Below, one piece after another: positions 8,885 through 23,048 of a DNA stretch of 64,000 nt. The stretch is from contig PSLF01000008.1 in NCBI GenBank assembly GCA_040289475.1, forward strand, positions 21,224 to 85,223, in the 5' to 3' direction. Each line of letters begins with the position of its first letter. Positions within the stretch are counted from its first letter, which is position 1. Below the pieces are notes generated by a model that had not been told where the DNA came from, ran no database searches, and saw only the letters and a program-made list of their open reading frames with translations. Source of the DNA: Acidimicrobiia bacterium (lineage in GTDB: Bacteria; Actinomycetota; Acidimicrobiia; ATN3; PSLF01). Made by a program: the position numbers and the translations under genes.

Positions 8885-9472
8885 ATGTCACGGAGCACCG
8901 GTGGAGCCACCTCCGTCAAGGTGGTGGTCACCGGGCCCTTTGCGGCCGGCAAGACTACCTTTATCAGTACTCTCTCAGAGGTTCCTCTTTTCTCGACTGA
9001 GAAGCCTGTGACGGACGAGTCTCGGTCGGTGAAGTCAATGACCACTGTGTCGATGGACTTCGGCAAGATCACTTTCGACTTTGACGAGGGCGACATAGTC
9101 CTCTACCTCTTTGGGACTCCAGGGCAAGAACGTTTCGATTTCATGTGGGATGTTCTGGCCCGCGGAATGTTGGGCTTTGTGGTACTCGTCGATGTGACAC
9201 GCGAGAACACGTACCCGGAGGCGAAGAAGATTGTCAAGTACTTCACCGAGCTCTCCGACGTTCCCTATGTAATAGGTGCAAATCGAGCAACGGGAAATGC
9301 CAAGGCAGTATCGCGTTTGAAGAAGAAGCTGGGCGTAAGTGACGACATTCCAGTTGTACCCTGCGAGGTGGTTAGCCGCCAAAGCGCAAAAGAGGTTCTT
9401 CTTGCGCTCCTTTATAGGGTGAGCGAGTTGTTGGATCGACAGCGGGCGATAGGGGCGTCGTCACCTCGGTAG
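8885..9472 (+). CDS. Small Ras-like GTPase (MglA/CvnD-type ATP/GTP-binding protein)
   Basis: P-loop GPFAAGKTT, switch II FGTPGQERF, NKxD-like VIGANRA; begins 4 nt after the PATAN gene. Confidence 0.85.
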   Translation: MSRSTGGATSVKVVVTGPFAAGKTTFISTLSEVPLFSTEKPVTDESRSVKSMTTVSMDFGKITFDFDEGDIVLYLFGTPGQERFDFMWDVLARGMLGFVVLVDVTRENTYPEAKKIVKYFTELSDVPYVIGANRATGNAKAVSRLKKKLGVSDDIPVVPCEVVSRQSAKEVLLALLYRVSELLDRQRAIGASSPR

Positions 9473-9564
9473 AGTGGACAAACTCGGGCACCGAGCAGTT
9501 TAGTCACTGTAGCGCTGGCGTCCATGGCTCTCAAGCTCGGAGATACAGTCGCTTCCGTATCGAT

Positions 9565-10836
9565 GTGATAGGAACGAGGAGGGCGGCGGGCACGTTGGAA
9601 AGTAATACCTATGGTCAAACTCCTGACGAACACTCAGAAGGAGTGCCACAACGCCGGCACGTCCAGCCTGGCCGAGGACTCCAAAGGGGCGCTGGACGAA
9701 TCCGATCGAGTCTGAGAAAGCTGTTCGGTCGCCGCGAGCGTGCCCAACATGCTGTTGAGGACGAATGGTACATTCCCCCCGAGTACCAAACTAGTTGGCA
9801 AGGACCGTCCGCCGAGATTCTCTCCGAGCCAGATACCCATTTGCATTCTCCAAGTCAATGGATCCTTCCCTCTCCGACCGAGGAGTCTTTGAGGAGAGCA
9901 GAAGAGAGGGGATTTGTAACGGCTGCAGGACTCTCGAGTCGGAGCGGGATCTCTAGCGAAGAGCCGTATCGTCTATCGCAACCGGTCATTGATGAAACTG
10001 AGATTTCCCAGCCTCGCTTCGTCTCCAAAGAGCCCGAGTCGTCGGCCGGCCTTCCCGAGTGGGTGATATCTGAATACGTCGAGAGCGAGGCAGCAATACC
10101 GTCGGCTCCTAAGGTTCTACCTCCCCAAACCGAGCCAGATGATAAAGGGGTTTCCGGTGGCGTGCCCTCTCCAAAAGAGGGTGGGGACGCAAGCTTTACG
10201 ATCGTCGAGCACAGCACCGAGCCGATAGGAGGCTACCTAGCCGACCTGGGCTTAGAGCAGGGCCAACGACGGCCGGTGGCCGAACAGCCGCCTCCAGCCC
10301 CCGATGAGTATCGCTTTTCGAAACAACCCGACAGAGATACTTTGGAGGCGGTCTACCTACCCGCGGCTCCCCCCGAGCCGCTCCCGGGAACGGAGGATGC
10401 CTTCGGCTCCGTGGAACAGCCTGCTCCCCCGGAGCCTCCGCCCCCGCCTCCTATAGCCGTGGCGAAGTCCACAGGCTCATTCGAGGCAGTCGATGAAAAA
10501 AAACCCACCCAACCTTCAGCACTGAGCGCCTCGAGCGCAGGCAAAGACAGAGCTGCGTCGGGTGGAAGAATTGGTCAAAAGTTGCACGGACCTCCGGCGT
10601 TTGCAGCGGAACCAGATATACGCCATGTAGTCCTTGGATTCAAGGATGGGACGGCCGTTTTCTTGGAGCCTGAGCATCCCCTCTTTTCGTTGTTCTTCCA
10701 ATGGAGCGAGCTGGTAGCCGGCCCCGAGACGCCACCCAAGGCCTACGCAAGGAGGCAGGCTCAGCACAAGATTTATCTGGGCAAGCCGCCGAGGGGAAAG
10801 CCCAAAAAATCTATGAAGAAAAAGGCGGGTGGTTGA
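9565..10836 (+). CDS. Proline-rich hypothetical protein with Lys-rich C-terminal tail
   Basis: 423-aa ORF, very Pro/Glu/Ser-rich (PAPPEPPPPPPIAVAK); ends KPPRGKPKKSMKKKAGG; no recognisable domain; co-oriented between the GTPase and pilB. Confidence 0.5.
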   Translation: MIGTRRAAGTLESNTYGQTPDEHSEGVPQRRHVQPGRGLQRGAGRIRSSLRKLFGRRERAQHAVEDEWYIPPEYQTSWQGPSAEILSEPDTHLHSPSQWILPSPTEESLRRAEERGFVTAAGLSSRSGISSEEPYRLSQPVIDETEISQPRFVSKEPESSAGLPEWVISEYVESEAAIPSAPKVLPPQTEPDDKGVSGGVPSPKEGGDASFTIVEHSTEPIGGYLADLGLEQGQRRPVAEQPPPAPDEYRFSKQPDRDTLEAVYLPAAPPEPLPGTEDAFGSVEQPAPPEPPPPPPIAVAKSTGSFEAVDEKKPTQPSALSASSAGKDRAASGGRIGQKLHGPPAFAAEPDIRHVVLGFKDGTAVFLEPEHPLFSLFFQWSELVAGPETPPKAYARRQAQHKIYLGKPPRGKPKKSMKKKAGG

Positions 10837-11084
10837 AGGATTCTGCATCCGTGCTCGGGCGCTGTGGGGGGCTTCTTTGAAATCATGGACTCTATTCAAG
10901 GATCGGAATCCACACCTGAAGTTGATGGCTAGAACATCCGATACTTATTCGCGACCACGCTCGCTAACTCGACGGGTGCGACAGGACGAGTCGCCCTGTT
11001 TTCTGGGAGGCATGCAATTACGAGCTGGCTCATTTGGGGCGCGGTTAATCTGGGTGGGTAGAAAGGTGCCGGAGGAGTCGATTC

Positions 11085-12755
11085 GTGGCAGAAGAAGATG
11101 TCACTAGCTTCGGGATGCTTCTTGTCGAAGAGGGAATAATAGACGAGTCTCAGCTCGACGAAGTTTTGGCTGAGTACGAGGAGACAGGAAAACCTATCGG
11201 CCGCATCCTGATCGAAAAGGGGTTTCTTACCGAGGAAGACCTTCTGGCGGTTCTCGCCGATCAAGCAGGATTTGAGTTCGTAGACCTGAGTGAACACCCT
11301 GTAGATCCATCCGCAGCTGCCTTGATCCCTGACTCAATTTGCCGTCGTTATGGCCTTATCGCTATCGGATTCAACGGCGACAAGCTGGTTGTCGCCATGT
11401 CCGATCCTCAAAACGTCATTGCCCGCGATGACGTGAAGTCTATTTCCGGCAGAGACATCGAGATTGTTGTAGCCGCGCCCGGGGCAATTCTCGAGGCTTT
11501 GGACCGGATCTCGAGACTCGACACGGACATTGAGGCCTTCGCTGGCGAGCAAGAAGTTGAAGAAGATCTTTCGAAGCTGAAGGAGATAAGCGAGGACGCC
11601 CCCGCCGTCCGCTTCGTCAACATGGTGATTTCCCAGGCTGTCCAAGACAGGGCATCCGACATTCATGTCGAACCGCAAAACCGTGACGTGGTCATCCGGT
11701 ATCGCATAGATGGCGTCCTTAAAGAACACATGAGAAGCGGCAAGTCAATCCATCCAGCCATCATCAGCCGCTTGAAAATAATGGCGGACATGGATATCGC
11801 AGAGCACCGAATCCCCCAGGACGGACGCATTTCTATGAAGATTATGGGCCGAGAGATAGACATGCGCTGTTCGTGTGTGCCCACAGTGTGGGGGGAAAAG
11901 TTCGTGATGCGAATTCTTGACAAGCAAGCGGGCATTGTTTCTCTCGACAAGCTAGGTCTGCTTGAAGAAAATGCACGCAAGCTCCAGGCCGCTTATACAA
12001 AACCGTACGGGGCGATCTTTTGCTCGGGACCTACGGGCTCGGGAAAGACGACGACTTTGTACTCGATCCTCAAGGTGATCGCTTCTCCTGATAAAAACAC
12101 GGTCACTGTCGAGGACCCTGTCGAGTACAAGATTCCAGGCTTGAACCAGGTTCAAGTGAACGCGAAGGCCGGGCTTACGTTCGCCAATGCGCTGAGAGGA
12201 ATCGTACGAGGTGACCCCGACATCATCATGGTGGGCGAGATCCGAGACTTGGAGACCGCTCACATCGCCGTAGAGTCGGCTTTGACCGGCCACCTAGTGC
12301 TTTCGAGTATCCACACCAACGACGCGCCCTCTACCCCTGCTCGGCTCGTCGAGATGGGAGTGGAGCCCTACTTGGTAGGGTCGGCGCTGGACTGCGTGGT
12401 CTCCCAGCGCCTTGCCCGGCGCTTGTGCGAGCGCTGTAAGGAGCCGTACCAGCCGACCGAAGAGATGCTGGTTAACATAGGTTGGCCCCTCGAGGAGGAG
12501 CGGGAATTGCCCGTGCTCTATAAAGCGGTCGGATGCGGACACTGTTCGAAGACTGGATACAGAGGGCGAATTGCTCTCCATGAGATCATGTTAGTTACCG
12601 AAGAAATTGAGAGAATGGTTGTCGAGCGCAGGACTTCCGAGGAGATTAAGAAAGTCGCAGTGATGGAGGGGATGAAGCCCCTCCGACTCGACGGATTGGC
12701 CAAAGTACGGATGGGCATAACCACTCTTGACGAGGTCATGAGGGTAGTGGTCTAG
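11085..12755 (+). CDS. pilB: Type IV pilus assembly ATPase PilB (GspE family) with N-terminal T2SSE_N/MshEN-like domain
   Basis: Walker A GPTGSGKTT, Asp/His boxes, tetracysteine CERC...CGHC; N-terminal repeated LLVEEGIIDESQLDEVL / ILIEKGFLTEEDLLAVLADQ motifs. Confidence 0.93.
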   Translation: MAEEDVTSFGMLLVEEGIIDESQLDEVLAEYEETGKPIGRILIEKGFLTEEDLLAVLADQAGFEFVDLSEHPVDPSAAALIPDSICRRYGLIAIGFNGDKLVVAMSDPQNVIARDDVKSISGRDIEIVVAAPGAILEALDRISRLDTDIEAFAGEQEVEEDLSKLKEISEDAPAVRFVNMVISQAVQDRASDIHVEPQNRDVVIRYRIDGVLKEHMRSGKSIHPAIISRLKIMADMDIAEHRIPQDGRISMKIMGREIDMRCSCVPTVWGEKFVMRILDKQAGIVSLDKLGLLEENARKLQAAYTKPYGAIFCSGPTGSGKTTTLYSILKVIASPDKNTVTVEDPVEYKIPGLNQVQVNAKAGLTFANALRGIVRGDPDIIMVGEIRDLETAHIAVESALTGHLVLSSIHTNDAPSTPARLVEMGVEPYLVGSALDCVVSQRLARRLCERCKEPYQPTEEMLVNIGWPLEEERELPVLYKAVGCGHCSKTGYRGRIALHEIMLVTEEIERMVVERRTSEEIKKVAVMEGMKPLRLDGLAKVRMGITTLDEVMRVVV

Positions 12756-12775
12756 AGTCGATGCGGTGATGAGAG

Positions 12776-14434
12776 ATGGCAACTACAGCGGATAGACTCG
12801 GTCACTTCTTAGTGGAGAAGGGATTTATAAGCCCCGAGGAGCTTGCCGATGCTACGGCAAGAGCTCAGGCATCGAACACCCCCCTTCCTAGACTTCTTTT
12901 GCATGAAGGAAGACTCACCGAAAAGCAGCTTCTAATGGCAGTAGCTGCCCAAAACGGTATGCGTTTTTTCGACTTTGCTGCCGAGCCCATGCACCCCGAG
13001 GCAGTGGGAATGGTCCCGCCGGAGATATGCCACCGCTTCAACGTGATAGGTGTGGGCATAGAAGGCCAAAACCTTGTGCTGGCGATGGCGGATCCAAAGA
13101 ACTCCGATGCTATTCAGGCTGTCCAACAAGCGACGGGCTGGATGGTGACCCCATGTCTCGCTGACAAAAACGAGGTCAATGCCGCCATAAAGCAGGTTCA
13201 TGGAGGTATACCGCCTGGCGGTGTAGATGGACGGCCCGGTGCTGGGGGAACCTCCGGACGCCTCATGACCGGAGACGTCAAGCTCGGTGGAGCAGATGAT
13301 CGACTGATGGAAGCCGCCCGGGCGGTAAAAGAAGAAGCTCCACCCGTCCAGGTGCAGCGAAGCGCAGAGGACATTCACGTCAACGAGTTGTTGGAGATCG
13401 TTTTAGAGAGAGGCGCATCGGACTTGCACCTCACGGTTGGCGCTCATCCGACCGTGAGGATCCACGGCGACCTCCATCCGCTTACCGAGTTCCCGATTCT
13501 CAAGCCAGGCCCGCTGCGCAAGATGATCTACGCTATACTCACGCAAAAACAGCGCGAGAAGCTTGAGTCTGAGCTGGAACTGGACATGTCGCATCCCCTG
13601 CCGGGGAAAGCCCGTTTTCGTGTCAACGTCTTTTTCCAAAGGGACTCGATCGGCGCTGTGATGCGAGTCATACCGATGAACATTTTGCCCTTGGAGAAAC
13701 TCGGGCTTCCGCCAGTGTTGACGAGCTTCGCGTATCTACCGAGAGGACTCATACTCGTAACCGGACCCACCGGCTCCGGAAAGTCAACCACTCTCGCTTC
13801 AATCATCGACATCGTCAACCGAGAGCGTCCCGTCCACATCATGACTGTAGAAGATCCCATCGAGTTTCTTCACACCCACAAAAGGGCACTCGTAAACCAA
13901 AGAGAGGTCGGTGAGGACACACATAGCTTTGCTAGCGCTTTGAAGCGGGTACTACGCCAGGATCCAGACGTGATTCTGGTCGGCGAGATGCGCGATCTCG
14001 AAACGATTGCCACAGCCATAACTGCGGCCGAGACAGGCCACTTGGTCTTTGGAACTTTGCATACACAAGATGCTCCTCAATCGATTGACCGCATAATCGA
14101 CGTGTTCCCGCCCCATCAGCAGCAACAAGTCAGGGTTCAGCTAGCCTCCTCGCTTCAGGCGGTTTGTACCCAGCAGCTTCTTCAGACAGCCGATGGAAAG
14201 GGGAGAGTCGTAGCTTGCGAGGTCTTGATTTGTACGCCGGCGGTGCGAAACTTGATAAGAGAGGGCAAGACTCACCAGATCTACTCCGTCATGCAGGCCG
14301 GCGGGCGCTTTGGCATGCAGACTATGGACCAGTCGCTGGCGGATCTAGTAAAAGCTGGTCGTATAAGCCTAGACATGGCGCGAGAGCGGTGTGCAAACGA
14401 AGAAGATCTCATGAGGCTGTTGGGAAGGATCTAA
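12776..14434 (+). CDS. pilT: Twitching-motility retraction ATPase PilT with extra ~190-aa N-terminal T2SSE_N/MshEN-like domain
   Basis: PilT core (Walker A GPTGSGKST, AVRNLIREG, GMQTMDQSL) with no Cys4 zinc site; preceded by RLGHFLVEKGFISPEELADA GspE-N-type domain. Confidence 0.9.
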   Translation: MATTADRLGHFLVEKGFISPEELADATARAQASNTPLPRLLLHEGRLTEKQLLMAVAAQNGMRFFDFAAEPMHPEAVGMVPPEICHRFNVIGVGIEGQNLVLAMADPKNSDAIQAVQQATGWMVTPCLADKNEVNAAIKQVHGGIPPGGVDGRPGAGGTSGRLMTGDVKLGGADDRLMEAARAVKEEAPPVQVQRSAEDIHVNELLEIVLERGASDLHLTVGAHPTVRIHGDLHPLTEFPILKPGPLRKMIYAILTQKQREKLESELELDMSHPLPGKARFRVNVFFQRDSIGAVMRVIPMNILPLEKLGLPPVLTSFAYLPRGLILVTGPTGSGKSTTLASIIDIVNRERPVHIMTVEDPIEFLHTHKRALVNQREVGEDTHSFASALKRVLRQDPDVILVGEMRDLETIATAITAAETGHLVFGTLHTQDAPQSIDRIIDVFPPHQQQQVRVQLASSLQAVCTQQLLQTADGKGRVVACEVLICTPAVRNLIREGKTHQIYSVMQAGGRFGMQTMDQSLADLVKAGRISLDMARERCANEEDLMRLLGRI

Positions 14435-14500
14435 AGGATCTAATGGGTACCGGGCGGAGCTTATTATCTGTAGGTAGCTCAATTAGGAGAGGAGCTTACG

Positions 14501-15712
14501 GTGCCTGACACGTTTGTATATAAAGTGCGCGATTCTCAGGGCCAACTTATCGAGGGCGAACTGGCTGCAGACAATGCCACCGTTGTCACAGCCAAGCTAC
14601 GTGAGATGGGATACATACCCATCGAGATCTCCAAGAAACAAGAGGGCCTAAAGCGCGAGATCACGATCGGCGGCAACAAGGTCAAACTAAAGGACCTGGC
14701 GGTCTTTTCTCGCCAGTTTGCCACAATGATCAATTCGGGCCTGTCGCTTCTGCGATCGTTGAACATCCTGGCCGAGCAGACCGAGTCGAAGCCGCTGCGC
14801 GAAACCATAAGACAAGTGAGGGACGAGATAGAGGGAGGGGGGTCTCTGTCGTCAGCGCTTGCCAAGCATCCCAAGGTCTTCAACGACCTGTACGTCTCGA
14901 TGGTCCGCTCGGGAGAAACCGGCGGAAACCTCGATTTGGTTCTCTTGCGGCTAGCTGAGACGATCGAAAAGCAGGTGGCACTGAGAAGCGAGATCAAGTC
15001 AGCCATGACTTATCCGGTCGTGGTGTTCGTGATGGTCGTACTGATAGTCACGGCGATGCTGATCTTCATAGTGCCCATGTTCGAGAACCTCTACAAAGAG
15101 CTGGGAGGCACGCTGCCAGCTCCGACGAGGATTTTGATCGGTGTTTCCAACCTCATAAAGAGCTTATGGTGGCTGGTGATTCTCCTTGGCGTAGGGGCGT
15201 TCTTCGGACTGAGGGCGTGGAAGAAAACCGAGTCGGGTCGAATGATCTTCGACTCTTTCAAGATCAAGGTTCCAGTGTTCGGACCGCTCTTTCACAAGGT
15301 GGCCCTTTCCCGCTTTTCAAGAACCCTCTCGGATCTCATACGATCGGGTGTGCCTATCTTGGAAAGCTTGGACATTGTGTCGGGAACGGTGAACAACGCA
15401 GTGGTCTCCAAGGCAATCCTCGCTGTCCAAGAGAGCGTGAAGAGCGGCGAGAGTATTGCGAGGCCTCTCCTAGAGCACTCGGTCTTCCCACCGATGGTAG
15501 TGCAGATGATCGCCGTTGGAGAGGAGACAGGCGCCTTGGACACTATGCTCACCAAAATAGCTGACTTTTATGATCAAGAAATTGAGGCTACGGTACAGGC
15601 ACTCACTTCGCTCATCGAGCCAATCCTTATAGCAGTGATGGGCGCCGCTGTAGGGGGGATGGTTATTGCCTTGTACATGCCGATGTTCAACATCGTCAAC
15701 CTCATCAAGTAG
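14501..15712 (+). CDS. pilC: Type IV pilus platform protein PilC (GspF family)
   Basis: 403 aa, two GspF repeats, three TM segments. Confidence 0.92.
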   Translation: MPDTFVYKVRDSQGQLIEGELAADNATVVTAKLREMGYIPIEISKKQEGLKREITIGGNKVKLKDLAVFSRQFATMINSGLSLLRSLNILAEQTESKPLRETIRQVRDEIEGGGSLSSALAKHPKVFNDLYVSMVRSGETGGNLDLVLLRLAETIEKQVALRSEIKSAMTYPVVVFVMVVLIVTAMLIFIVPMFENLYKELGGTLPAPTRILIGVSNLIKSLWWLVILLGVGAFFGLRAWKKTESGRMIFDSFKIKVPVFGPLFHKVALSRFSRTLSDLIRSGVPILESLDIVSGTVNNAVVSKAILAVQESVKSGESIARPLLEHSVFPPMVVQMIAVGEETGALDTMLTKIADFYDQEIEATVQALTSLIEPILIAVMGAAVGGMVIALYMPMFNIVNLIK

Positions 15713-15837
15713 ATGGCAGAAACTATTATTGCAAGACCCCTAAAGGCCGGTTGCTTCGCGACCGATACCCTAAACAGCCTGAGGCGAGAGGTTGCATCTT
15801 GCCCAGGTGAGTCCAAAAAGAAAGGAGGTGATACAAG

Positions 15838-16383
15838 ATGATGTGGCTCAGAAAAGACCTAAAGGGTAAAGACGAGGGCTTTACCTTGATCGAGCTGATG
15901 GTGGTGGTGCTGATCATTGCAATACTTATCTCCATCGCCATCCCGACGTTTTTGGGAGCCCGGCGTCGTGCCCAGAACCGTGCGGCTCAGTCGAACCTGC
16001 GCAACGCACTAACGACGGAGAAGACCTACTACGTCGACACCCAGCGCTACACCGATGTCCCGGCGCAGCTCCAGCAAGTGGAGAACTCGCTGCTCTGGGT
16101 GAACAACGCTACGGTCAATTCCACTAACTGCGCAGCCGCTCAGCGTCGGGTATGTGTTGCAATCCAAAACATACTGACGACTGTAGCCGCAGCCTACAAC
16201 GGCGGAACAGCGGCTGCTTCCGGGAACAACTACAACCTCGGTGACGAGGCGATAAGTGGTGGATCGGGAGCAGGAACATGGTATGCCTGCAACGACGGCT
16301 CAGCTGACCTCAACATCGGTCCTTTACCTGGAGCAGTCGCCGGAGCAAGCCAAGACCAAAACCAAGGTTGGATGTGCTCTTAG
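15838..16383 (+). CDS. pilA: Type IVa major pilin (prepilin with class III signal peptide)
   Basis: Leader MMWLRKDLKGKDEG / FTLIELMVVVLIIAILISIAIP (Gly-1, Phe+1, Glu+5); C-terminal Cys pairs for a D-region disulfide. Confidence 0.9.
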   Translation: MMWLRKDLKGKDEGFTLIELMVVVLIIAILISIAIPTFLGARRRAQNRAAQSNLRNALTTEKTYYVDTQRYTDVPAQLQQVENSLLWVNNATVNSTNCAAAQRRVCVAIQNILTTVAAAYNGGTAAASGNNYNLGDEAISGGSGAGTWYACNDGSADLNIGPLPGAVAGASQDQNQGWMCS

Positions 16384-16420
16384 CGATTCCACTCCCAGGC
16401 GTTGGGGTCAGACTCTGTGA

Positions 16421-16460
16421 GCGAAAGGGGCGCCATATGGCGCCCCTTTTCGCTATTTGA
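16421..16460 (+). terminator. Rho-independent terminator downstream of pilA
   Basis: Near-perfect GC-rich palindrome aaaggggcgcca-ta-tggcgcccctttt followed by a T-rich tract, 38 nt after the pilA stop. Confidence 0.8.
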
Positions 16461-16528
16461 CGATCCAAACTTGTTGGCTCTCTTATTGTCCCGACGTATT
16501 CTGTGGCGACTAAAGGAGTCGGTCTGGG

Positions 16529-17362
16529 TTGAATTCTTTCCAGGACTGGACGATCGTCGTTTTTTGGACGCTTGTGGGATTGATTTTTGGTTCGTTCGTC
16601 AACGTGATCGTAACGAGGGTCCCAGAAGGGCGGTCGATCGTTCATCCACCGTCTCGGTGTCCCCACTGCCTGGCACCCATAGGTTTTTGGGAGAACATCC
16701 CAATTATCTCTTACTTTTTTTTAGGTGGTAGGTGTAGGCACTGCAAAGAGCCGATCGGATGGAGGTACCCCGCTACCGAAGCTGGGGTAGCCGTTGCCTT
16801 CGGCGTCGTGGTCTGGAGGCTGTGGGTGACAGCCAACAGGCCTGCGGCTGCGATTCTCGTTATGGCAGCTACAGTCGTCTTTGTCTCGGTAGCGATCATA
16901 GACGCCAAGACAAAGCGCATTCCTCGGAAGCTCGTGTACTGGGGACTGGTCATGGTGATCCCCTTGAGCGTAGTCGTAGCTCTCTATGAAGCACGCCCTG
17001 CGGCGTTGATTATTGCACTGGCTTCCTCGATGGGTTATGGGATCGCATTGTTTGCGATCCACAGCATCGATCCACGGTGGATGGGCTTTGGAGATGTACG
17101 CTATGCCTTTTTCCTAGGTTGGGTGTTGGGATACTTCGGGTGGTGGTATCCGCTCGCTGGCTTTATGCTGGCATTGGTAATTGGAAGTGTCGTGGGGCTT
17201 ACGCTTGTCGCAGTAGGCAAGAGCCGATTGGGAAAAACTATTCCCTTTGGCCCGTTTCTTTCTCTTGGGGCCTATGCGGTACTTCTGTGGGGTTGCGAGC
17301 TTGCCGGCTTGTATCTACACCTCATGGGTCTTCCCCTTGCAGGATGCCGAACGTTACCCTAA
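16529..17362 (+). CDS. pilD: Prepilin peptidase / N-methyltransferase (A24 family)
   Basis: N-terminal CPHC...CRHC zinc motif; multi-TM A24 peptidase core with catalytic Asp region (GFGDVRYAFFLG). Confidence 0.9.
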   Translation: MNSFQDWTIVVFWTLVGLIFGSFVNVIVTRVPEGRSIVHPPSRCPHCLAPIGFWENIPIISYFFLGGRCRHCKEPIGWRYPATEAGVAVAFGVVVWRLWVTANRPAAAILVMAATVVFVSVAIIDAKTKRIPRKLVYWGLVMVIPLSVVVALYEARPAALIIALASSMGYGIALFAIHSIDPRWMGFGDVRYAFFLGWVLGYFGWWYPLAGFMLALVIGSVVGLTLVAVGKSRLGKTIPFGPFLSLGAYAVLLWGCELAGLYLHLMGLPLAGCRTLP

Positions 17363-17404
17363 GCGCGGCGAGCTTGCCCGCTTGTATCTACACCTCATGG
17401 GTCT
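17295..17404 (+). repeat. 37-bp direct repeat (1 mismatch, 73-bp period) spanning the pilD stop codon
   Basis: gcgagcttgccggcttgtatctacacctcatgggtct at 17295-17331 is repeated at 17368-17404 with gccggc changed to gcccgc. Confidence 0.85.
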
Positions 17405-17703
17405 GGCTCTGCGATAGACATCCGAGCTTGCGCCAATAGTGCTTTACAAAGCAGGAATTTGCTTGTATTGTTATACCACAATTTTTGGGGCACACAAGAT
17501 GTGGCGGAGTTGGCGGCGCCGGCGGGTCCGGCCCGACCGATCTCCGCCGTTCTCTATCTAAGAGGACATGTAAGGGGCTCGCCTCGATGGGGGGCCTGGG
17601 GACAGTGTTAGATGTGTGACTGAAGATTGCTGGAGTTGTCTAGGTATCAAGATTTTGCAACCTTTGGACGATTTAGGAAAAGCGAGTCGTACAATGCAAG
17701 CAA

Positions 17704-17931
17704 TTGACTCGAAGCGAGTGGGTTTTGTCAAGAGCAGAAGTACCACCAAAGGTCGAGTTACTGACCGTGCGGGAGGTCGCAGGGCTCACCCGGGTCTCGA
17801 CCATGACGGTGTATCGGCTAATCAAACGGGGAGAGCTTCCGGCGGTGAGAGTAGGTCGCTCTTACAGAATTCGGAGGCAAGATTTGATCCGCTATTTGCT
17901 TAGCTCTTCTACCGCAGAGGAGAGGTCGTAG
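17704..17931 (+). CDS. Helix-turn-helix DNA-binding protein (excisionase/MerR-like HTH_17 family)
   Basis: LLTVREVAGLTRVSTMTVYRLIKRGELPAVRVGRSYRIRRQDL is a typical HTH_17 motif; stop overlaps the pilM start; true start probably internal (VELLTVREV). Confidence 0.7.
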   Translation: MTRSEWVLSRAEVPPKVELLTVREVAGLTRVSTMTVYRLIKRGELPAVRVGRSYRIRRQDLIRYLLSSSTAEERS

Positions 17932-18992
17932 TGCCAAAGACTGTTGTCGGCCTTGATATCGGCACCTCGTCGGTGAGGGGTGTCGAGATACGCATCGGAA
18001 AAGACCGCCCCGTGTTGGTACGCATAGCTCAGCAAGAGATGGCTCCCGGATCGACTCGTGAGGGTGAAATTGTCAATCCGCCTGCAGTCGGAGACGCAAT
18101 CTCGAGGTTGTGGAAGTCGGGAAAGTTCAAAGGCAAGGACGCTGTCGTAGTCGGGGTGGCCAACGCGAAAGTAGTGGTGCGTCAAGTCGAGTTGCAGTGG
18201 ATGCCAGAAGAGGAGTTGCGCAACGCCTTGGCGTTCCAAATCCAAGAGTTCATTCCCATTCCGTTAGAGGAAGCGATCATTGACTACATGCCGGTAGAAG
18301 AGGTGTATCCAGGCGAGGGGCAGCGCCTCTTACGGATTTTAGTAGTAGCTGCTCAAAAAGAGATGATCCAGTCATTGATAGAGACGTTGCAGTATGCAAA
18401 GCTTCAACCTGCCGTCATAGACCTAAACGCGCTGGCTCTAATGAGGTCTCTGGTGAGCATGTACGGACTTGAAGAGCCACCGCCCGCCGAGGCACTCGTC
18501 GACATTGGCGCAGGCATTACGAACGTTGTAGTACACGAGCAAACCAAACCCCGCTTCGTGAGAATCATCGCCGGCGGGGGCGACGACTTTACTGCAGCAA
18601 TCTCCGAGCAGCTGGGCGTAGATCCAATCAGTGCAGAGCAGATCAAAAGAGAGATAGGTGCTTCGGGGTCTGCTCCTCCTGGCTACGATCGCGCGATGGA
18701 CGTGATCGAAGAAAAAACGGCCTCTTTTGTTGACGAGATTCGCGGATCCCTCGACTTTTATATGGCCCAGCCCGATGCCCAGCCGATCTCTCGAGTTGTC
18801 CTCTCTGGAGGAGGCTCGCAGCTTAGGACGATTCCAGATCGGTTACGCTCCGCCTTAGGGATCCCTGTCGAACAGGGGCATCCTCTTCAGTACGTTGAGC
18901 TTGCCGATCTTGGCATGCACCCTGAGCAGTTGGCCTCGATAGAGCCTTATCTGGCAGTTCCTGTAGGTCTGGCCTTGAGCGAGGCGGTCTGA
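17931..18992 (+). CDS. pilM: Type IV pilus assembly protein PilM (actin-like ATPase fold)
   Basis: VVGLDIGTSSVRGVEI N-terminus, 353 aa. Confidence 0.88.
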   Translation: MPKTVVGLDIGTSSVRGVEIRIGKDRPVLVRIAQQEMAPGSTREGEIVNPPAVGDAISRLWKSGKFKGKDAVVVGVANAKVVVRQVELQWMPEEELRNALAFQIQEFIPIPLEEAIIDYMPVEEVYPGEGQRLLRILVVAAQKEMIQSLIETLQYAKLQPAVIDLNALALMRSLVSMYGLEEPPPAEALVDIGAGITNVVVHEQTKPRFVRIIAGGGDDFTAAISEQLGVDPISAEQIKREIGASGSAPPGYDRAMDVIEEKTASFVDEIRGSLDFYMAQPDAQPISRVVLSGGGSQLRTIPDRLRSALGIPVEQGHPLQYVELADLGMHPEQLASIEPYLAVPVGLALSEAV

Positions 18993-18993
18993 G

Positions 18994-19839
18994 ATGTACA
19001 GGTTCAGGGGTGGAATAAACCTAGTACCTCCCGAGATAGCCGAATCACGCCTCGTCAGGCGGAATTGGTACATAGCCCTAGCGATCATCGCTGGTGTAGT
19101 AGCAATCCTTGTGGTACTCACCATTTTGCAGGCTGCGCAGAGCAAGCGACTGGCTAATAAAGTGGAGGCACAGCAGGCAGAAAACAATCGTCTAAAGGCT
19201 CGCGCAGCTGAGCTGGAGTACCTCGAGGGGCTTCAGACCGAGTTCGAGACGCAGCGCTCCTTGGTTCAGGCAGCCTGGACGAACGAAGTTTCATGGGCGA
19301 AGGTCCTTCAAGAGATTGCATCGGCAATGCCCGACGGCGTGTATTTGAACAGCTTCACGGGAGAGGCAGGGACTCAGCAGAACGTTCCCGCCCAGGGCCA
19401 GAGCCAACAGCCCAGCCCAGGAGGTCAGCAGACCTCACCCGGGGCAGCCCCACCAGGTAATGTGCTGCCACCATCGAGTCCTTCACCGACCCGCAAGGTT
19501 ATTGGCAAGGTCACGATTCAGGCTGTAGCCAAAAACCACAGGGAGGTCGGTAATTGGCTATACAGGGTCAATCGAGGAATGCCCTCTCTAACTTATGCCT
19601 GGGTTCGGGACGCAACGCTGTCAGAGCAAAAACAGCAGCTTCCCGGCGGAGGAGAGGTCGCTACTACGAAAACTTCGTTCAGTTTCGAAGCATTCCTCAG
19701 CCCATACGCCATGGGATGGATGGGCCGCTGTGCAGAGCGCGGATTCGAAAACCTCGCTCAAGCACCATACGGAGTCTGCGGACACTCGTTCTACGGTGCG
19801 CAATCATCTGGTGCCCCGCCGCCGACACCGAGAAGATAG
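18994..19839 (+). CDS. pilN: PilN-like pilus assembly protein with Gln/Pro-rich linker
   Basis: INLVPPEI N-terminal motif (PilN INLLP signature), single TM helix, coiled coil, low-complexity QQPSPGGQQTSPGAAPP linker. Confidence 0.75.
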   Translation: MYRFRGGINLVPPEIAESRLVRRNWYIALAIIAGVVAILVVLTILQAAQSKRLANKVEAQQAENNRLKARAAELEYLEGLQTEFETQRSLVQAAWTNEVSWAKVLQEIASAMPDGVYLNSFTGEAGTQQNVPAQGQSQQPSPGGQQTSPGAAPPGNVLPPSSPSPTRKVIGKVTIQAVAKNHREVGNWLYRVNRGMPSLTYAWVRDATLSEQKQQLPGGGEVATTKTSFSFEAFLSPYAMGWMGRCAERGFENLAQAPYGVCGHSFYGAQSSGAPPPTPRR

Positions 19840-19852
19840 CAGGTAGGTCTCA

Positions 19853-20692
19853 ATGCGAAGGGTGATTCCATTCATCGTGGCTGCAGTGGTGTCGGTGACG
19901 CTCATTCTTGCTTGGTTCTTTCTGATAAGGAGCCCGTTGGGGGCAAACAGGGCCGAAAAGCAAAAGGAGCTCTCGAAGTTACAGCAAGAACAGCGTAATC
20001 TCGAGACTACGATTGCTAGACGGGTCGAGCTCCAGCGCAATGAGGCTCGTACGCGGGCTGGATTAGTTGAATTCCGTCAAAACGTGCCTGACACGCCTGA
20101 CCTGGCGGAGTTCATCTGGGCAAATTATGAGATCGCTCGCCAAGCGGGAATGAAGTGGATGTCAATCGCCCCCTCGATACCAGAGCAACCACAAAAGACG
20201 AGCACTCCGTCCCAAGCACCATCTACAGCGGCGCCGGCAGAGATGAACATCTCTCTAAATCTAGAGGGCGGTTACTTCCAGATGATCGACTACTTGATTC
20301 GACTGGAAAAGCTGCGCCGTACCTTTGTAGTCGACAATCTACAGATTCTCGCTCAACTTGAGACCGCGCAGTTGCAGGTGAGCATTCGGGGCCGAATGTT
20401 TACCACCCAGACTGGTCTTCCTTGGACTCCATCTGACGCCGACCTGAATCTGATTTACCCGCCGCAGGGTCCGAGCCAGCGAGGCCAGATTCCTGGAGCG
20501 CCGGAGGCTGGTTGTACACCGCCCCAGCCCGGATTTTCCGAGGGTAGGCAGCCGAACGAGCTCGGGAACTGCTCTGGTCAGCTTTTCGTTCCGAGAGCCG
20601 GCGAGCCTGTTCCGCCTCAGCCAACTGGAATAGGTCCCAGTCCATCGCCTACAGGTGGCGGGGCGGGCGGCGCAAAGTCTATGGGCCCGTAG
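19853..20692 (+). CDS. pilO: PilO-like pilus assembly protein with Pro-rich C-terminus
   Basis: N-terminal TM helix then coiled coil (KQKELSKLQQEQRNLETTIARRVELQ), position after pilN. Confidence 0.7.
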   Translation: MRRVIPFIVAAVVSVTLILAWFFLIRSPLGANRAEKQKELSKLQQEQRNLETTIARRVELQRNEARTRAGLVEFRQNVPDTPDLAEFIWANYEIARQAGMKWMSIAPSIPEQPQKTSTPSQAPSTAAPAEMNISLNLEGGYFQMIDYLIRLEKLRRTFVVDNLQILAQLETAQLQVSIRGRMFTTQTGLPWTPSDADLNLIYPPQGPSQRGQIPGAPEAGCTPPQPGFSEGRQPNELGNCSGQLFVPRAGEPVPPQPTGIGPSPSPTGGGAGGAKSMGP

Positions 20693-20731
20693 ATAAAGGC
20701 GGCCTTGAAGATGATTGGGATTAGGTAAGCG

Positions 20732-21589
20732 ATGAGTACAGATATCCCCACCGGACCGATACAGCCACCTACTGGACCTATAGGCCAGGTGCCAACAGGT
20801 GGTCCCGGGCAGTATGGCCCGCCTCCGCCACCACCGGGCGCACCTCTAGGTGAGGGTTTTGGTGTGGGAGGCGGACCTGGTAGCCTAGCCCCGGAGGGAG
20901 TGCCTCCGGAGCAACCAGGAGCCCCGGCGCCGGAGGGCGCGCCCCCGACCCGCACGACAAGTCGCAGGCCAATGATAATTGCCCTAATGGTATTGGGGGT
21001 TTTGTTGATCGCGGCGGCTGTGTACTTTGTGTTTCTGAGAGGTGGTGGGGAAAAGCGGACTGCTACTCCCACCACGCCTCCAGCAGCCCCGAGAACGCCA
21101 CAGCAACCCGGCGGACAGGGCGCGCCCGGAGGAGGGACAATTACCGGAACAGCTGGGCCGGCACCAAGTCCATATCCCTCACTAGATCCAGGGCTTCAAG
21201 CAGACATCGCCGAATCTTTTCAGCAGTACAGTTCAAGGAATCCGTTCCGCTGTACGTTCGCTTGTCCCGTGCCTGCGACTACTACTACGGGAGCAAGTGG
21301 TACTACGGGTACTACCGGGGGAACGTCCTCGACGCCGTCGCCCGCTCCACAGGGCGGAAGCACTTCTGGTACTCAGCAGCCTTCTGGCTCGGGATCGTCG
21401 GTGACTCTCAAGGAGATAGTGGGTGGAACTCAGGCAGTTGTTCAGGTCTCCGGGCAGACATTTACTGTGGGAGTTGGTGAGACATTTGCTGGTAACTATA
21501 AGCTCACGCGAATCGCTGGGAATTGTGCCTCGTTTCTGCAGGGTGACTCTCCATTCACCTTGTGTACCGGACAGTCGGTGCTCAAGTAA
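20732..21589 (+). CDS. PilP-like protein: Pro/Gly-rich N-terminus, TM helix, C-terminal beta-domain
   Basis: TM helix MIIALMVLGVLLIAAAVYFVFL; C-terminal VTLKEIVGGTQAVVQVSGQTFTVGVGETFAGNYKLTRI resembles the PilP secretin-binding beta-sandwich; last gene of the pil block. Confidence 0.55.
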   Translation: MSTDIPTGPIQPPTGPIGQVPTGGPGQYGPPPPPPGAPLGEGFGVGGGPGSLAPEGVPPEQPGAPAPEGAPPTRTTSRRPMIIALMVLGVLLIAAAVYFVFLRGGGEKRTATPTTPPAAPRTPQQPGGQGAPGGGTITGTAGPAPSPYPSLDPGLQADIAESFQQYSSRNPFRCTFACPVPATTTTGASGTTGTTGGTSSTPSPAPQGGSTSGTQQPSGSGSSVTLKEIVGGTQAVVQVSGQTFTVGVGETFAGNYKLTRIAGNCASFLQGDSPFTLCTGQSVLK

Positions 21590-21872
21590 GCAAGCACCCC
21601 TCTTATCCGGTCAGCTGGAATGCTTACGGCATCCTCGCTCTAAGGAGAGATCGCGGAGCCGCCAGCAGCTCCAGGAGGCGGGTACTACGTTAGTTTGACG
21701 GAGCGGGCGGGGGGCCGGGAAGTTCGTAGACGGCCGTCACTCGGGTCTCTTGGCGGACTTCCCGGCCCCGGGGTACAGGCTGAACGAAGCCCGAACGGTT
21801 GAGCCCGAGCCTGAAGGACGCCAATGTATCCTGCGACTCGTTGTTAGTCCTACGGGTACCATTTCACTTGAC

Positions 21873-23048
21873 ATGCTTAGGTTCTTGACTTCCGGAGAAT
21901 CCCATGGCTTCGGCCTTGTAGTGGTCCTCGAGGGCCTTCCTGCTGGCATTTCCTTTAGCACGAAGGATTTGGCTAATGAGTTAGCACGAAGGCGCCTGGG
22001 GTTCGGTAGAGGGCCTCGCATGGCGATTGAAGAGGACAGAGTCCGAATTGTAGGGGGCCTCAGGCACGGGAAGACTCTTGGATCGCCGTTCTCGGTGCTA
22101 ATCGAAAATTCAGAGTTTGCCGAGAAGTGGGCCGAAACGATGAGTCCCGATCCCGGTGAAGTTTCGGGGGCTTTGACCCGTCCGAGGCCTGGCCATGCCG
22201 ATCTGGGCGGAATGATCAAGTACGGATTCGAAGATGCCAGGAACGTGTTGGAACGATCGTCGGCAAGGGAGACTGCAGCTCGAGTCGCAGCGGGCGCCAT
22301 ATGCAAGGCTTTTCTAGAAGCAGTGGGCGTGCGAGTACTAAGCCACGTCTTAGAAGTGGGGGGCGTCAGGGCCGATGTAGACATTCCACATCCCGATGAT
22401 CTCGAAGCGATAGACAAAGATCCCTTGAGGTGCTTGGACTCCCGGGCTTCCCAGGACATGGCCGCTGCAATTGAGGCAGCCCGAGAAGAGGGAGACACGG
22501 TCGGAGGCGTTTTCGAGGTCGTCGCTTATGGGTTGCCCGTAGGGCTCGGATCGTACGTGCATTGGGACAGGCGTCTGGACTGTAGGCTCGCAGGAGCGTT
22601 GATGAGCATCAACGCCGTGAAAGCAGTCGAGATCGGGGAGGGAATTGCACAGGCGCGTTCGAGAGGATCGCAAGCTCACGACGAGATCGTGTGGGGAGAT
22701 TCCGAGGGGCTGTTTATCGAAAGAAAAACTAACAGAGCGGGCGGAATCGAGGGTGGAATGACGACGGGAGAGCCTCTTGTGGTGAGGGGTGCCATGAAAC
22801 CTCTGTCTAGCCTCGCCCGTCCGTTGGCGACTATCGATCTTGCGACTGGAAAGCCAGCCGAAGCCATAACTCAGAGGACGGACACTTGTGCGGTCCCGGC
22901 AGCAGCGGTCGTGGGCGAAGCCATGGTCTCTTTTGTATTGGCTGACGCGATATTAGAGAAGTTCGGGGGCGACACCCTAGGCGAGATTCAGGAGCGCATT
23001 CGGGCTTACGAAGCTAGGCTGAAGCGTCGCTTGGATAGCTTGCCTTGA
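21873..23048 (+). CDS. aroC: Chorismate synthase
   Basis: MLRFLTSGESHGFGLVVVLEGLPAG canonical N-terminus (start moved to the internal ATG at 21873; the ORF extends upstream to 21750). Confidence 0.93.
   Translation: MLRFLTSGESHGFGLVVVLEGLPAGISFSTKDLANELARRRLGFGRGPRMAIEEDRVRIVGGLRHGKTLGSPFSVLIENSEFAEKWAETMSPDPGEVSGALTRPRPGHADLGGMIKYGFEDARNVLERSSARETAARVAAGAICKAFLEAVGVRVLSHVLEVGGVRADVDIPHPDDLEAIDKDPLRCLDSRASQDMAAAIEAAREEGDTVGGVFEVVAYGLPVGLGSYVHWDRRLDCRLAGALMSINAVKAVEIGEGIAQARSRGSQAHDEIVWGDSEGLFIERKTNRAGGIEGGMTTGEPLVVRGAMKPLSSLARPLATIDLATGKPAEAITQRTDTCAVPAAAVVGEAMVSFVLADAILEKFGGDTLGEIQERIRAYEARLKRRLDSLP

Follow-up and report, generated by a model that had tools for sequence, protein, structure and literature searches.

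Results

Gene content of the aroE-aroC interval

The stretch of DNA analyzed here, referred to below as the window, comprises 64,000 nucleotides (nt) of contig PSLF01000008.1 from an Acidimicrobiia bacterium and contains a cluster of type IVa pilus (T4aP) genes between the housekeeping genes aroE and aroC. The window as a whole is one long, almost wholly plus-strand series of actinobacterial core genes. The upstream boundary of the cluster is aroE, encoding shikimate dehydrogenase (6022 to 6978, plus strand; Shikimate_dh_N, 2.5e-28, together with SDH_C), which is preceded by alaS (1422 to 4076), ruvX (4073 to 4504), and mltG (4464 to 6035) and is the same neighbor in related loci L003, L005, L007, L036, L090, and others (loci of the comparison are cited by these numbers throughout). 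The downstream boundary is aroC, encoding chorismate synthase (21750 to 23048, plus strand; Chorismate_synt, 2.4e-117), followed by aroK, aroB, and aroQ. An original prediction, made from the letters of the sequence, had named these flanks, and Pfam families confirmed them. It had also listed ten co-directional genes at 11085 to 21589, and all ten are present on the plus strand in the order pilB, pilT, pilC, pilA, pilD, a gene for a helix-turn-helix (HTH) protein of the HTH_17 family, pilM, pilN, pilO, and a pilP-like gene. Their open reading frames (ORFs) are unbroken, with lengths that agree with those of relatives. The limits given for the block were probably too narrow, as four co-directional genes upstream (7113 to 10836), probably part of the system, had been missed; aroE does not abut pilB, and 14 co-directional plus-strand genes lie between aroE and aroC. 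Twelve recognizable genes are intact, and their order and length are kept in relatives with PilT proteins that are 78 to 91% identical.

As had been predicted, no secretin was found among the Pfam-annotated ORFs of at least 150 amino acids (aa) in the rest of the window, the remainder of which is housekeeping, and a secretin is also absent from the gene-called related loci. The assignment to type IVa, which relies on PilMNO and PilT, held up: the PilM match is strong, PilT lies above the TIGR01420 cut-off, and PilN and PilO are weak matches that are linked by BLAST to annotated homologs. The encoded proteins nearly match those of Acidimicrobiia known from metagenomes. PilT is 100% identical to a partial NCBI protein labeled "Acidimicrobiia bacterium", and PilD is 100% identical to "prepilin peptidase [Acidimicrobiia bacterium]"; the exact PilT sequence was found on just one ENA metagenome contig, of 5.6 kb.

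The platform protein PilC (14501 to 15712, plus strand) has two T2SSF domains (7.7e-71) and matches NF052607 with 459 bits. The major pilin PilA (15838 to 16383, plus strand; N_methyl, 2.7e-08; TIGR02532) has a leader ending in KDEG followed by FTLIELMVV, i.e., a Gly/Phe cleavage site with Glu at position +5, and two pairs of cysteines. No second prepilin signal was found in a six-frame motif scan of the 64 kb, and PilA is the sole pilin-like gene. With one pilin gene and no minor pilin in 64 kb, and several pilins in the clusters of relatives, the claim that the cluster is complete is unproven. The prepilin peptidase PilD (16529 to 17362, plus strand; A24_N_bact, 2.5e-32; Peptidase_A24, 1.8e-09) is an A24 peptidase with an N-terminal four-cysteine zinc-ribbon domain, and its catalytic D125 and GFGD189 are invariant in the PilD alignment. 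The stop codon of pilD is flanked by the copies of a 37-nt direct repeat (17295 to 17331 and 17368 to 17404), which are 97% identical and 73 nt apart. Read in another frame, the second copy would give the same ELA(R/G)LYLHLMGL peptide, and the repeat may be the scar of an indel or of a small duplication at the C terminus of pilD, which is not conserved.

Between pilD and the next gene lies an intergenic region of 340 bp (17363 to 17703), in which an alignment of the window with L090 shows CTTTACAAAGCA.G.ATTTGCTTGTATTGTTAT to be conserved. A block at 17441 to 17475 (CTTTACAAAGCAGGAATTTGCTTGTATTGTTAT), likewise conserved with L090, holds a promoter-like TTTACA-17-TATTGT (17443 to 17471) and an imperfect palindrome and may be the promoter/operator of an HTH_17-pilM operon. 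A promoter/terminator scan, in which match counts were no higher than in shuffled sequences, was used as a pointer only. The longest ORF in this gap (17616 to 17903, 95 aa) was rejected as the HTH gene, having no family match and a non-protein-like sequence. The predicted HTH regulator is nevertheless present, in another frame: a small excisionase/MerR-like DNA-binding protein encoded at 17704 to 17931 on the plus strand (PF12728, 1.7e-17), the stop codon of which overlaps the pilM start codon. An HTH_17 gene stands at this place before pilM in L005, L090, and L092 and was detected by BLAST in L024, L026, L036, L051, L064, L065, and L070.

The actin-like assembly protein PilM (17931 to 18992, plus strand) matches PilM_2 (8.2e-43) and TIGR01175 (203 bits; cut-off, 133). 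PilN (18994 to 19839, plus strand) is a bitopic protein with a weak match to PF05137 (1.1e-3) and an N-terminal INLVP motif of the PilM-binding type, and it is homologous by BLAST to the Pfam-annotated PilN of L009. PilO (19853 to 20692, plus strand), also bitopic, is GspM/PilO-like with weak scores (T2SSM, 1.5e-3; PilO, 0.016; NF040576, 3.4e-5), and its positional homologs in L005 and L009 carry PilO/T2SSM annotations. In L005 (15475 to 17133) and in matching ORFs of L024, L026, L036, L056, and L064, PilM is 550 to 700 aa long and no separate PilN was found, which suggests that PilM and PilN are fused in many Acidimicrobiia; in the window, they are encoded by separate genes.

Conservation of the locus in two actinobacterial classes

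Related loci were gathered from the gene neighborhoods of homologs and by a scan anchored on a PilD alignment, whose loci were annotated by ORF calling and BLASTP against the window proteins. The 80 loci of the scan are those among the 600 pattern matches listed and constitute a biased sample, which affects all frequencies given here; the sample leaves out Mycobacterium, Corynebacterium, and Streptomyces at the aroE-aroC locus. In the synteny comparison, the same aroE...pil...aroC order was found in Acidimicrobiia and in the class Actinomycetes. Relatives with PilT proteins 91% and 78% identical to that of the window have the same order, alaS through pilM and pilB through aroQ. In a more distant member of the Acidimicrobiia (L005), the order is alaS-ruvX-mltG-aroE-PATAN-pilB-pilT-pilC-pilA-pilA-pilD-HTH_17-pilM..., and L003 has just the first part of it. 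The pattern in this class reads aroE-(PATAN)-pilB-pilT-pilC-pilA-pilD-HTH-pilM-N-O-x-aroC. The order aroE-pilB-pilT-pilC-...-pilD-pilM-N-O-aroC is found in Kineosporia, Cellulomonas, Angustibacter, Demequina, and Actinotalea and in metagenome-assembled genomes (MAGs) of Pseudonocardiales and Frankiales. Kineosporia sp. NBRC 101677 has ruvX-mltG-aroE-...-pilT-pilC-pilA-(minor pilins)-pilD-pilM-N-O-aroC-aroK-aroB-efp-nusB, and a Pseudonocardiales MAG has ...pilT-pilC-pilA-pilA-(minor pilins)-pilD-pilM-pilN-pilO-x-aroC-aroK-aroB-aroQ-pepP-efp-nusB.

Among the 56 loci with at least 6 kb of downstream sequence, aroC, aroK, or aroB follows immediately after PilD in 33. Further pil genes are borne by 29 aro-linked loci of the Acidimicrobiia and the class Actinomycetes, among them those in Cellulomonas, Angustibacter, Demequina, and Actinotalea genomes, in MAGs of Frankiales, Mycobacteriales, and Micrococcales, and in many Acidimicrobiia. 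PilD alone is kept in seven loci, with the order aroE-PilD-aroC in L031, L041, and L060 and aroE-PATAN-PilD-aroC in L076. In the aroE-pil-aroC locus L051, which is syntenic in other respects, the sequences of pilT and pilC (6000 to 8500) are each spread over three to four frames, and pilB, pilD, pilM, aroC, aroB, and pepP are each in a single frame; pilT and pilC are apparent pseudogenes there, and the locus has the look of a copy in decay at this same site. The remaining 23 of the 56 informative loci are not aro-linked. One genome has pilT-pilC at another site, adjoining CRISPR-cas, in Leifsonia flava the orthologous cluster adjoins rpsL-rpsG-fusA-tuf, and two Streptomyces loci (L068 and L075) and L006 hold a different type IV pilus (T4P)-like system at another site.

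In a neighbor-joining tree of PilC, midpoint-rooted and without bootstrap, the Acidimicrobiia clade containing the window is sister to an Actinomycetes-class clade, and the T4P-like systems of Streptomyces, Nocardioides, Amycolatopsis, Dehalococcoidia, Gammaproteobacteria, and Paceibacterota fall outside both. These sister clades fit vertical descent. Together, the synteny and the PilC tree point to an old pilus locus that in some lineages has been whittled down to the A24 peptidase. The original prediction had placed such a peptidase at this position in many actinobacterial genomes, which the aro-linked and PilD-only loci bear out in this sample, and had proposed an ancestral locus that most lineages have reduced. 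The old locus and its reduction in some lineages find support here, but "most" does not, given the bias of a PilD-anchored sample. No earlier description of the aroE-aroC pilus linkage was found in the literature, subscription-only papers, such as one on the zoospore pilus of Actinoplanes, not being covered.

Sequence composition of the block

The composition of the block was compared with that of its flanks. GC content is flat over the window, at 0.52 to 0.60, and the GC content at third codon positions (GC3) of the pil genes is inside the range of the flanking genes. Relative synonymous codon usage correlates at 0.86 between block and flanks and at 0.81 between the two flank halves. The tetranucleotide correlation of the interval 6979 to 21749 with the rest is 0.951, compared with 0.933 to 0.967 for control windows of the same size. 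No tRNA genes were found in the window, no att-like direct repeats bound the block, no integrase or transposase family occurs among the annotated ORFs, and the key genes are free of frameshifts. In composition the block is indistinguishable from its flanks, and the hypothesis of a recent island was rejected, as the composition, tRNA, and repeat checks were all negative. None of the signs that the original prediction had named as counting against it is present. The pil block is supported as native. The original prediction had called the block "inserted" into the aroE-aroC locus, a word at odds with the ancestral reading favored by the data.

PilB and an MshEN-bearing PilT

The extension ATPase PilB (11085 to 12755, plus strand; 556 aa) has T2SSE (4.9e-133) and MshEN (3.2e-20) domains. 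TIGR02538 is its top match at 605 bits, yet below the cut-off of 675.65; its N domain scores 61.8 bits with NF053729 (cut-off, 38) and 72.4 bits with PF05157 (cut-off, 23.1). PilT (12776 to 14434, plus strand; 552 aa) consists of an MshEN/N1 domain (residues 1 to 145; MshEN, 3.9e-13), a disordered linker (residues 146 to 194), and a PilT core (residues ~195 to 552). The core is full length, matching TIGR01420 over residues 202 to 543 and model positions 2 to 342 of 343 with 493.4 bits (cut-off, 319), compared with 221 bits for the PilB model. Its translation contains GPTGSGKST (Walker A), EDPIE, DVILVGEMRD, HLVFGTLHT (His-box), and AVRNLIRE, with Asp-box and Walker B present. In an AlphaFold2 (AF2) model, the core is 54% identical to Geobacter PilT4 and superposes on it with a TM score of 0.85 to 0.90; it also superposes on Thermus PilT2 and Pseudomonas PilT (50%). 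Identity to solved PilT structures thus ranges from 50 to 54%, versus 25 to 29% to PilB structures.

The N domain of PilT scores above both cut-offs (PF05157, 49.6 bits against 23.1; NF053729, 42.7 bits against 38), is 35% identical to the N domain of the PilB encoded beside it, and is modeled by AF2 as a four-helix subdomain and an alpha/beta subdomain, with a predicted local distance difference test (pLDDT) score of 84 to 93. Against 4pht (GspE in a GspL complex), the whole chain aligns over 513 columns with a root mean square deviation (rmsd) of ~25 Å, a likeness in domain order only. The core places the protein in the PilT/PilU family, of which it is a variant because its architecture departs from the canonical two-domain form of ~345 aa without N1. 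The predicted PilT is present, in a non-canonical form.

This architecture of MshEN plus T2SSE on PilT occurs in at least 120 database clusters (the best 120, 514 to 588 aa), and all named ones are Acidimicrobiia or Acidimicrobiales. Among the scan loci, the PilT N-domain signal was found in the Acidimicrobiia clade only; PilT proteins of the class Actinomycetes have Pro/Gln-rich or otherwise low-complexity N-terminal extensions and no MshEN. A search of 1.84 billion representatives yielded further colinear MshEN-PilT proteins of 39 to 54% identity, in divergent clusters that carry no organism names bar one unrelated Eremiobacterota protein. As judged from these sequences, MshEN-PilT is the rule in Acidimicrobiia. 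No earlier description of the fusion was found in the literature, subscription-only papers again not being covered. The PilT proteins of the orthologous clusters in L007 (2958 to 4373) and L008 (2979 to 5039) have N-terminal extensions of 120 to 340 residues, and such appendages seem to be a general trait of PilT in actinobacterial T4aP. In the representative library, P0253, P0254, and P0256 (~720 to 740 aa) are tandem PilT-PilT fusions.

Cyclic di-GMP (c-di-GMP) binding by MshEN domains was assessed by the published motif, consisting of two tandem 24-residue motifs with a 5-residue spacer and four conserved glycines (PMC5013675). The PilB domain has 10/11 positions of motif I and 11/11 of motif II of the relaxed motif of Wang et al., with the 5-residue spacer, and PilB is likely, by this prediction, to be a c-di-GMP receptor. 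The PilT domain has 9/11 and 9/11 positions, and conserved glycines are missing from it, which makes c-di-GMP binding by PilT doubtful. A gene for a GGDEF diguanylate cyclase (50498 to 51946), the only clearly minus-strand gene among the large ORFs of the window, indicates that c-di-GMP can be synthesized by the organism. A GGDEF gene, together with a BldD-like gene, likewise comes after nusB in Kineosporia (L007). The N1 domain of GspE binds the PilM-like protein GspL, and by analogy the N domain of PilT is predicted to be mainly a docking module.

A PilP-like protein in a cluster lacking a secretin

The last gene of the block (20732 to 21589, plus strand) encodes a bitopic membrane protein of 285 aa. 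A Pro/Gly-rich N terminus and a single transmembrane helix are followed by a linker that is rich in Thr and Gly and contains an RNPF motif; the last ~63 residues are conserved and constitute a predicted beta domain. No Pfam family matched it even at an E value of ≤10, the PilP and GspC models included. The family comprises nine homologous clusters in a large database, and positional homologs follow pilO in L005, L009, L024, L046, L047, L056, and L064, which cover Acidimicrobiia and the class Actinomycetes (e.g., L009 and L046). When the family profile was compared with Protein Data Bank (PDB) sequences, PilP structures 2ivw (Neisseria) and 4av2 came first at non-significant E values of 0.18 to 0.39. 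The C-terminal domain is modeled by AF2 with a pLDDT of >90, and its top Foldseek match is the GspC HR domain (3oss_C; TM score, 0.73; rmsd, 2.0 Å), followed by LspC, GspB, PulC HR, and PilP (2lc4, 2ivw, and 4av2); E values of all top matches are just 0.1 to 0.8, as expected for so small a domain. The pilP-like gene of the original prediction is thus matched by a domain with a predicted GspC-HR/PilP-like fold, and the label is supported at the level of the modeled fold, not proven. PilP and other outer-membrane-associated components are missing in monoderms (PMC6916266), and loss of the secretin has been inferred at the origin of monoderm T4aP (Denise et al., PMC6668835). A PilP-like protein without a secretin is unusual.

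Four genes upstream of pilB

The first of the four genes between aroE and pilB (7113 to 7550, plus strand) encodes a Roadblock/LC7 protein of the conservon CvnB type and MglB-like fold class (Robl_LC7, 9.9e-20, 70.5 bits). Its best solved relatives are 7f8m, Rv3364c, and CvnB5 (3leq), and the position is also filled in L090. The second (7568 to 8881, plus strand) encodes a PATAN (DUF4388/PatA_N) protein, with PF14332 at residues 4 to 157 (1.3e-25, 90.2 bits against a cut-off of 25; 92.7 bits for the L090 ortholog), weak HTH_47/TrmB winged-helix matches at ~190 to 230, an acidic Glu-rich tract, and a disordered tail. GAA/GAG-rich imperfect repeats at 8278 to 8389 encode ~45 residues of this tract, which is poly-Glu/Tyr. 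Response_reg did not match the protein, making it a stand-alone PATAN rather than the PatA-type architecture of PATAN plus receiver. The third gene (8885 to 9472, plus strand) encodes a small Ras-like GTPase of the CvnD/ATP_bind_1 type (ATP_bind_1, 9.8e-17, 62 bits against a cut-off of 27; Ras, 7.7e-11), with a GPFAAGKT P-loop, a GTPGQ switch II, and generic Rab/Sec4 matches in the PDB. It is conserved in L090 and L091 and related by BLAST to the CvnD of a canonical conservon in L023. The fourth (9565 to 10836, plus strand) encodes a proline-rich, mostly disordered protein of 423 aa that matches no Pfam, NCBIfam, or PADLOC family; its conserved part is the C-terminal ~170 aa, and homologs were found in L090, L091, and L001 only (58 to 59% identity).

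The PATAN gene is directly 5' of pilB in L003, L005, L022, L036, and L090, adjoins aroE and pilB in L024, and persists between aroE and the lone PilD gene in L076. In a database protein of 1,024 aa, P0251, PATAN is joined to two PilT-like ATPase domains. The gene order Roadblock-PATAN-GTPase parallels that of CvnB-CvnC-CvnD, PATAN standing where CvnC would be. Neither a CvnA sensor kinase nor a CvnC (DUF742) was found at 7113 to 10836, and the module is thus conservon-like and not a conservon. Homology of the PATAN protein to CvnC/DUF742 was rejected, as Pfam and BLAST (against the DUF742 protein of L023) gave no similarity. Identification of the GTPase and Roadblock proteins as MglA and MglB was likewise rejected; the solved-structure matches listed are generic Rab and CvnB-type, and no specific family model matched. 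PADLOC gave nothing meaningful for the four genes as a defense system. In L023, a canonical conservon on the minus strand (11534 to 16089), comprising CvnA (HATPase_c/HAMP), CvnB Roadblock, CvnC DUF742, and CvnD GTPase, adjoins a lone PilD gene sited between aroB and aroQ.

PATAN proteins have been connected with pilus motors elsewhere. In Synechocystis, PATAN interacts with PilB1 and PilC by yeast two-hybrid, through the PilC N terminus, and is sufficient to reverse phototaxis (10.1101/2021.06.11.447907); a Myxococcus T4aP study named two PATAN-domain proteins, uncharacterized, among candidate regulators. The four upstream genes are probably a regulatory module. By adjacency and analogy, PATAN may be a class-wide regulator of the motor that is coupled in this lineage to a GTPase switch.

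Other features of the window

Upstream of pilB, an Arg-rich ORF of 92 aa (10829 to 11107) has no matches and is probably spurious, and the 248-bp gap before pilB is more likely a promoter region. No Rfam riboswitch or noncoding RNA element reached the gathering threshold in the pilD-HTH gap or elsewhere in the window. A 16-nt inverted repeat with arms 27 nt apart (21711 to 21726 and 21754 to 21769; 94% complementarity) extends across the start codon annotated for aroC. The mltG ORF is 523 aa long, with the YceG domain just at residues 229 to 514, and gene calls in relatives are 333 to 358 aa; either the true start is downstream or the protein has a long disordered N-terminal extension. Beyond aroQ lie pepP, efp, nusB, pyrR, pyrB, pyrC, carA, carB, pyrD, gmk, and coaBC, and the window further contains metK, priA, def, fmt, rpe, rib genes, hisG, infC, pheST, and argCJ. 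The ORF at 27144 to 28799 (551 aa) joins NusB (residues 4 to 124) to a type I phosphodiesterase/nucleotide pyrophosphatase domain (residues 204 to 535). NusB has 131 to 160 aa in all related loci, and the ORF is either a real fusion or two same-frame genes with no stop codon between them.

Discussion

Interpretation of the locus

Collectively, these findings lead us to read the locus, with a probability of roughly 85%, as a native, vertically inherited T4aP locus of a monoderm Acidimicrobiia bacterium, set between aroE and aroC at a position that is old in actinobacteria. The activities and interactions of its products are predicted here from family membership. PilD would cut the PilA leader at the Gly/Phe site; PilB, docked on PilC and the PilM-PilN-PilO complex, would polymerize PilA into a filament; and PilT would depolymerize the filament, causing retraction. 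A secretin would be unneeded because there is no outer membrane. The MshEN/N1 domain of PilT most likely tethers it to the PilM/PilC docking surface used by PilB and may also sense nucleotide, although its c-di-GMP motifs are partly degenerate and those of PilB near-canonical. Outside the membrane, the PilP-like protein is probably part of the PilNO layer. The PATAN, Roadblock, and small GTPase proteins are probably a GTPase switch on the motor, by analogy with the cyanobacterial PATAN regulators of PilB/PilC. Transcription from the conserved promoter-like region that precedes its gene is probably under the control of the HTH_17 protein, which is translationally coupled to pilM. We hold as doubtful the further proposal of a variant form of T4aP control in which the retraction motor captured N1/MshEN, PilB and PilT compete for the PilM/PilC docking site or respond oppositely to nucleotide, PATAN picks the motor and is wired here to Roadblock and GTPase proteins, and the PilP-like protein without a secretin hints at a wall-spanning partner.

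Several points weigh against the reading of the locus as an inherited T4aP system with the predicted control. The organism is an uncultured MAG, in which the pilus is a prediction from genes. Neither the cluster nor the 64-kb window contains minor pilins, which relatives have in-cluster, and the machine may be reduced in function or may draw on genes located elsewhere. PilN, PilO, and the PilP-like protein were assigned by weak hidden Markov model or fold scores together with synteny. The PilC tree is crude, lacking bootstrap support and being rooted at its midpoint, and the frequencies of the PilD-anchored scan come from a biased sample. In the N domain of PilT, Gly3 of motif II is absent in 112/112 family members and Gly10 of motif I in 107/112. 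Finally, the Roadblock and GTPase pair is limited to the window, L090, and L091, and its link to the pilus is one of adjacency.

Acquisition of the pil block as a horizontal island between aroE and aroC, either in this lineage or repeatedly in several, is highly improbable. Although the block breaks an otherwise housekeeping string of genes, type IV filament systems do move horizontally (Denise et al. 2019, PMC6668835), and the orthologous cluster lies elsewhere in some actinobacteria, as in Leifsonia and in the 23 of 56 loci that are not aro-linked, the GC, GC3, codon usage, and tetranucleotides of the block are those of its flanks, and tRNA genes, flanking direct repeats, and integrase or insertion sequence families among the annotated ORFs are lacking. 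Moreover, site and gene order are shared by two classes, the PilC phylogeny follows the class split, and decay products (the PilD-only loci and L051) remain at the same site. Such stepwise decay in other genomes, along with a single pilin gene in 64 kb compared with two to six pilin-like genes and large N_methyl proteins in the clusters of relatives, could instead mean that the locus encodes a remnant or a specialized machine, for instance, a pseudopilus for DNA uptake or secretion, in place of a surface-exposed, twitching-competent pilus, with the lack of minor pilins marking its reduction. We judge this unlikely in view of the twelve intact genes, conserved in order and length down to a PilT identity of 78%, and of the presence of PilT and PilMNO, which are hallmarks of retractile T4aP (PMC6916266); minor pilins may also be encoded elsewhere in the genome, of which 64 kb are in view.

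Two further alternatives concern parts of the locus. The 552-aa PilT would be a second extension-type or regulatory ATPase if its N domain defined its role, as N1/MshEN defines assembly ATPases of the PilB/GspE/MshE type, both MshEN models exceed their thresholds, and the domain order is GspE-like over the 513 columns aligned to 4pht; in addition, Vibrio cholerae PilT is reported to promote both extension and retraction of the MSHA pilus (PMC9815625). The core nevertheless matches TIGR01420 end to end (493 bits versus 221 for the PilB model), is closer to solved PilT structures (50 to 54% identity versus 25 to 29% for PilB), and keeps the AIRNLIRE-like motif of PilT as AVRNLIRE, and a separate full PilB is encoded immediately upstream, all of which makes such a role distinctly unlikely. 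It is possible, with the odds against it, that the genes at 7113 to 10836 are an unrelated conservon-like signaling module that lies next to the pilus genes by chance. Conservation of the PATAN gene by itself between aroE and pilB across many Acidimicrobiia, the fusion of PATAN to PilT-like ATPases in P0251, the binding of PATAN to PilB1 and PilC in Synechocystis, and the place of PATAN as CvnC in an order of B-C-D type, by which the GTPase pair is connected with PATAN, all speak for a link with the pilus. Chance adjacency draws on the conservon CvnB proteins being the best solved relatives of the Roadblock protein, on the occurrence of the Roadblock, GTPase, and 423-aa proteins in this lineage only, and on L023, in which a canonical cvnABCD near a PilD relic could be a coincidence.

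Significance

Experiments on the type IV filaments of actinobacteria have focused on Tad/Flp pili. According to reviews, the pili studied in Actinobacteria are Tfpc, and it is chiefly through genome surveys that T4aP are known there (PMC6916266, PMC6668835). The system itself is therefore of a known kind. It is a variant in that PilT is fused to MshEN, a PilP/GspC-like protein occurs although a secretin is lacking, a PATAN/Roadblock/GTPase module adjoins the pil genes, and the conserved aroE-aroC address shows stages of decay. In at least two actinobacterial classes, T4aP emerges as an old, syntenic trait that has apparently been inherited vertically, and the aroE-aroC position offers a fixed address at which its presence, decay, and loss can be scored. 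The MshEN-PilT of Acidimicrobiia may serve as a natural experiment on the docking and regulation of the motor, and the PATAN gene would extend the link between PATAN and the pilus motor beyond cyanobacteria. A PilP/GspC-type domain that survives without a secretin would bear on how machines of the diderm type adapt to single-membrane envelopes. These functional claims are predictions for uncultured organisms, and their value lies in the hypotheses they provide rather than in a demonstrated mechanism.

Comparison with known systems

The locus resembles the T4aP loci of monoderm Firmicutes (Streptococcus sanguinis, Clostridium perfringens, and C. difficile) in that PilB, T, C, D, M, N, and O and pilins are encoded at one locus without a secretin, and PilB carries MshEN (PMC6916266, PMC9765702). 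It differs from them in the MshEN of PilT, the GspC-HR/PilP-like protein, the PATAN/Roadblock/GTPase genes, the lack of in-cluster minor pilins, and the phylum. With the T4aP of diderms (Pseudomonas, Neisseria, Myxococcus, and Thermus) it shares the core proteins, including a PilT core of 50 to 54% identity, the Gly/Phe site, Glu5, and C-terminal cysteines of the pilin, and a predicted PilP-like beta domain after PilO. In contrast to these systems, the PilQ secretin, TsaP, and PilF/PilW are absent, and the PilP-like protein is anchored by a transmembrane helix instead of a lipid.

Canonical PilT (~345 aa) lacks an N1 domain, and the PilT of the window has one. Both N domains exceed the Pfam and NCBIfam thresholds for the MshEN (GSPII) domain of MshE, PilB, GspE, and PilF, and the PilB motifs fit the relaxed motif. 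In the literature found, the domain is placed on extension and secretion ATPases and on glycosyltransferases, and the main text of PMC5013675 never mentions PilT; here it is also on PilT, where it lacks Gly positions that define binders. The 285-aa protein, encoded directly after a PilO/GspM-like gene, has in common with GspC HR and PilP that a membrane anchor and a flexible linker lead to a small beta domain, here a predicted one. It differs in having no Pfam match, non-significant scores, no PDZ domain, and no secretin N0 partner in the window or in the gene-called related loci. In its transmembrane anchor it resembles GspC more than the lipoprotein PilP.

As in the cyanobacterial regulators PixE, PixG, and TaxP1, a PATAN/DUF4388 domain is associated with a T4aP motor. 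Unlike these proteins, the PATAN protein of the window has no REC domain and is thus not a response regulator, has a weak winged-helix match and a long acidic/disordered tail, and is flanked by Roadblock and small GTPase genes instead of a chemosensory system. The pairing of a Roadblock/LC7 gene with an adjoining Ras-like GTPase gene is shared with conservons (CvnA-D) and with MglA/MglB of Myxococcus, and the GTPase matches ATP_bind_1 as CvnD does. In contrast to conservons, CvnA and the DUF742 protein CvnC are absent, and PATAN occupies the CvnC position.

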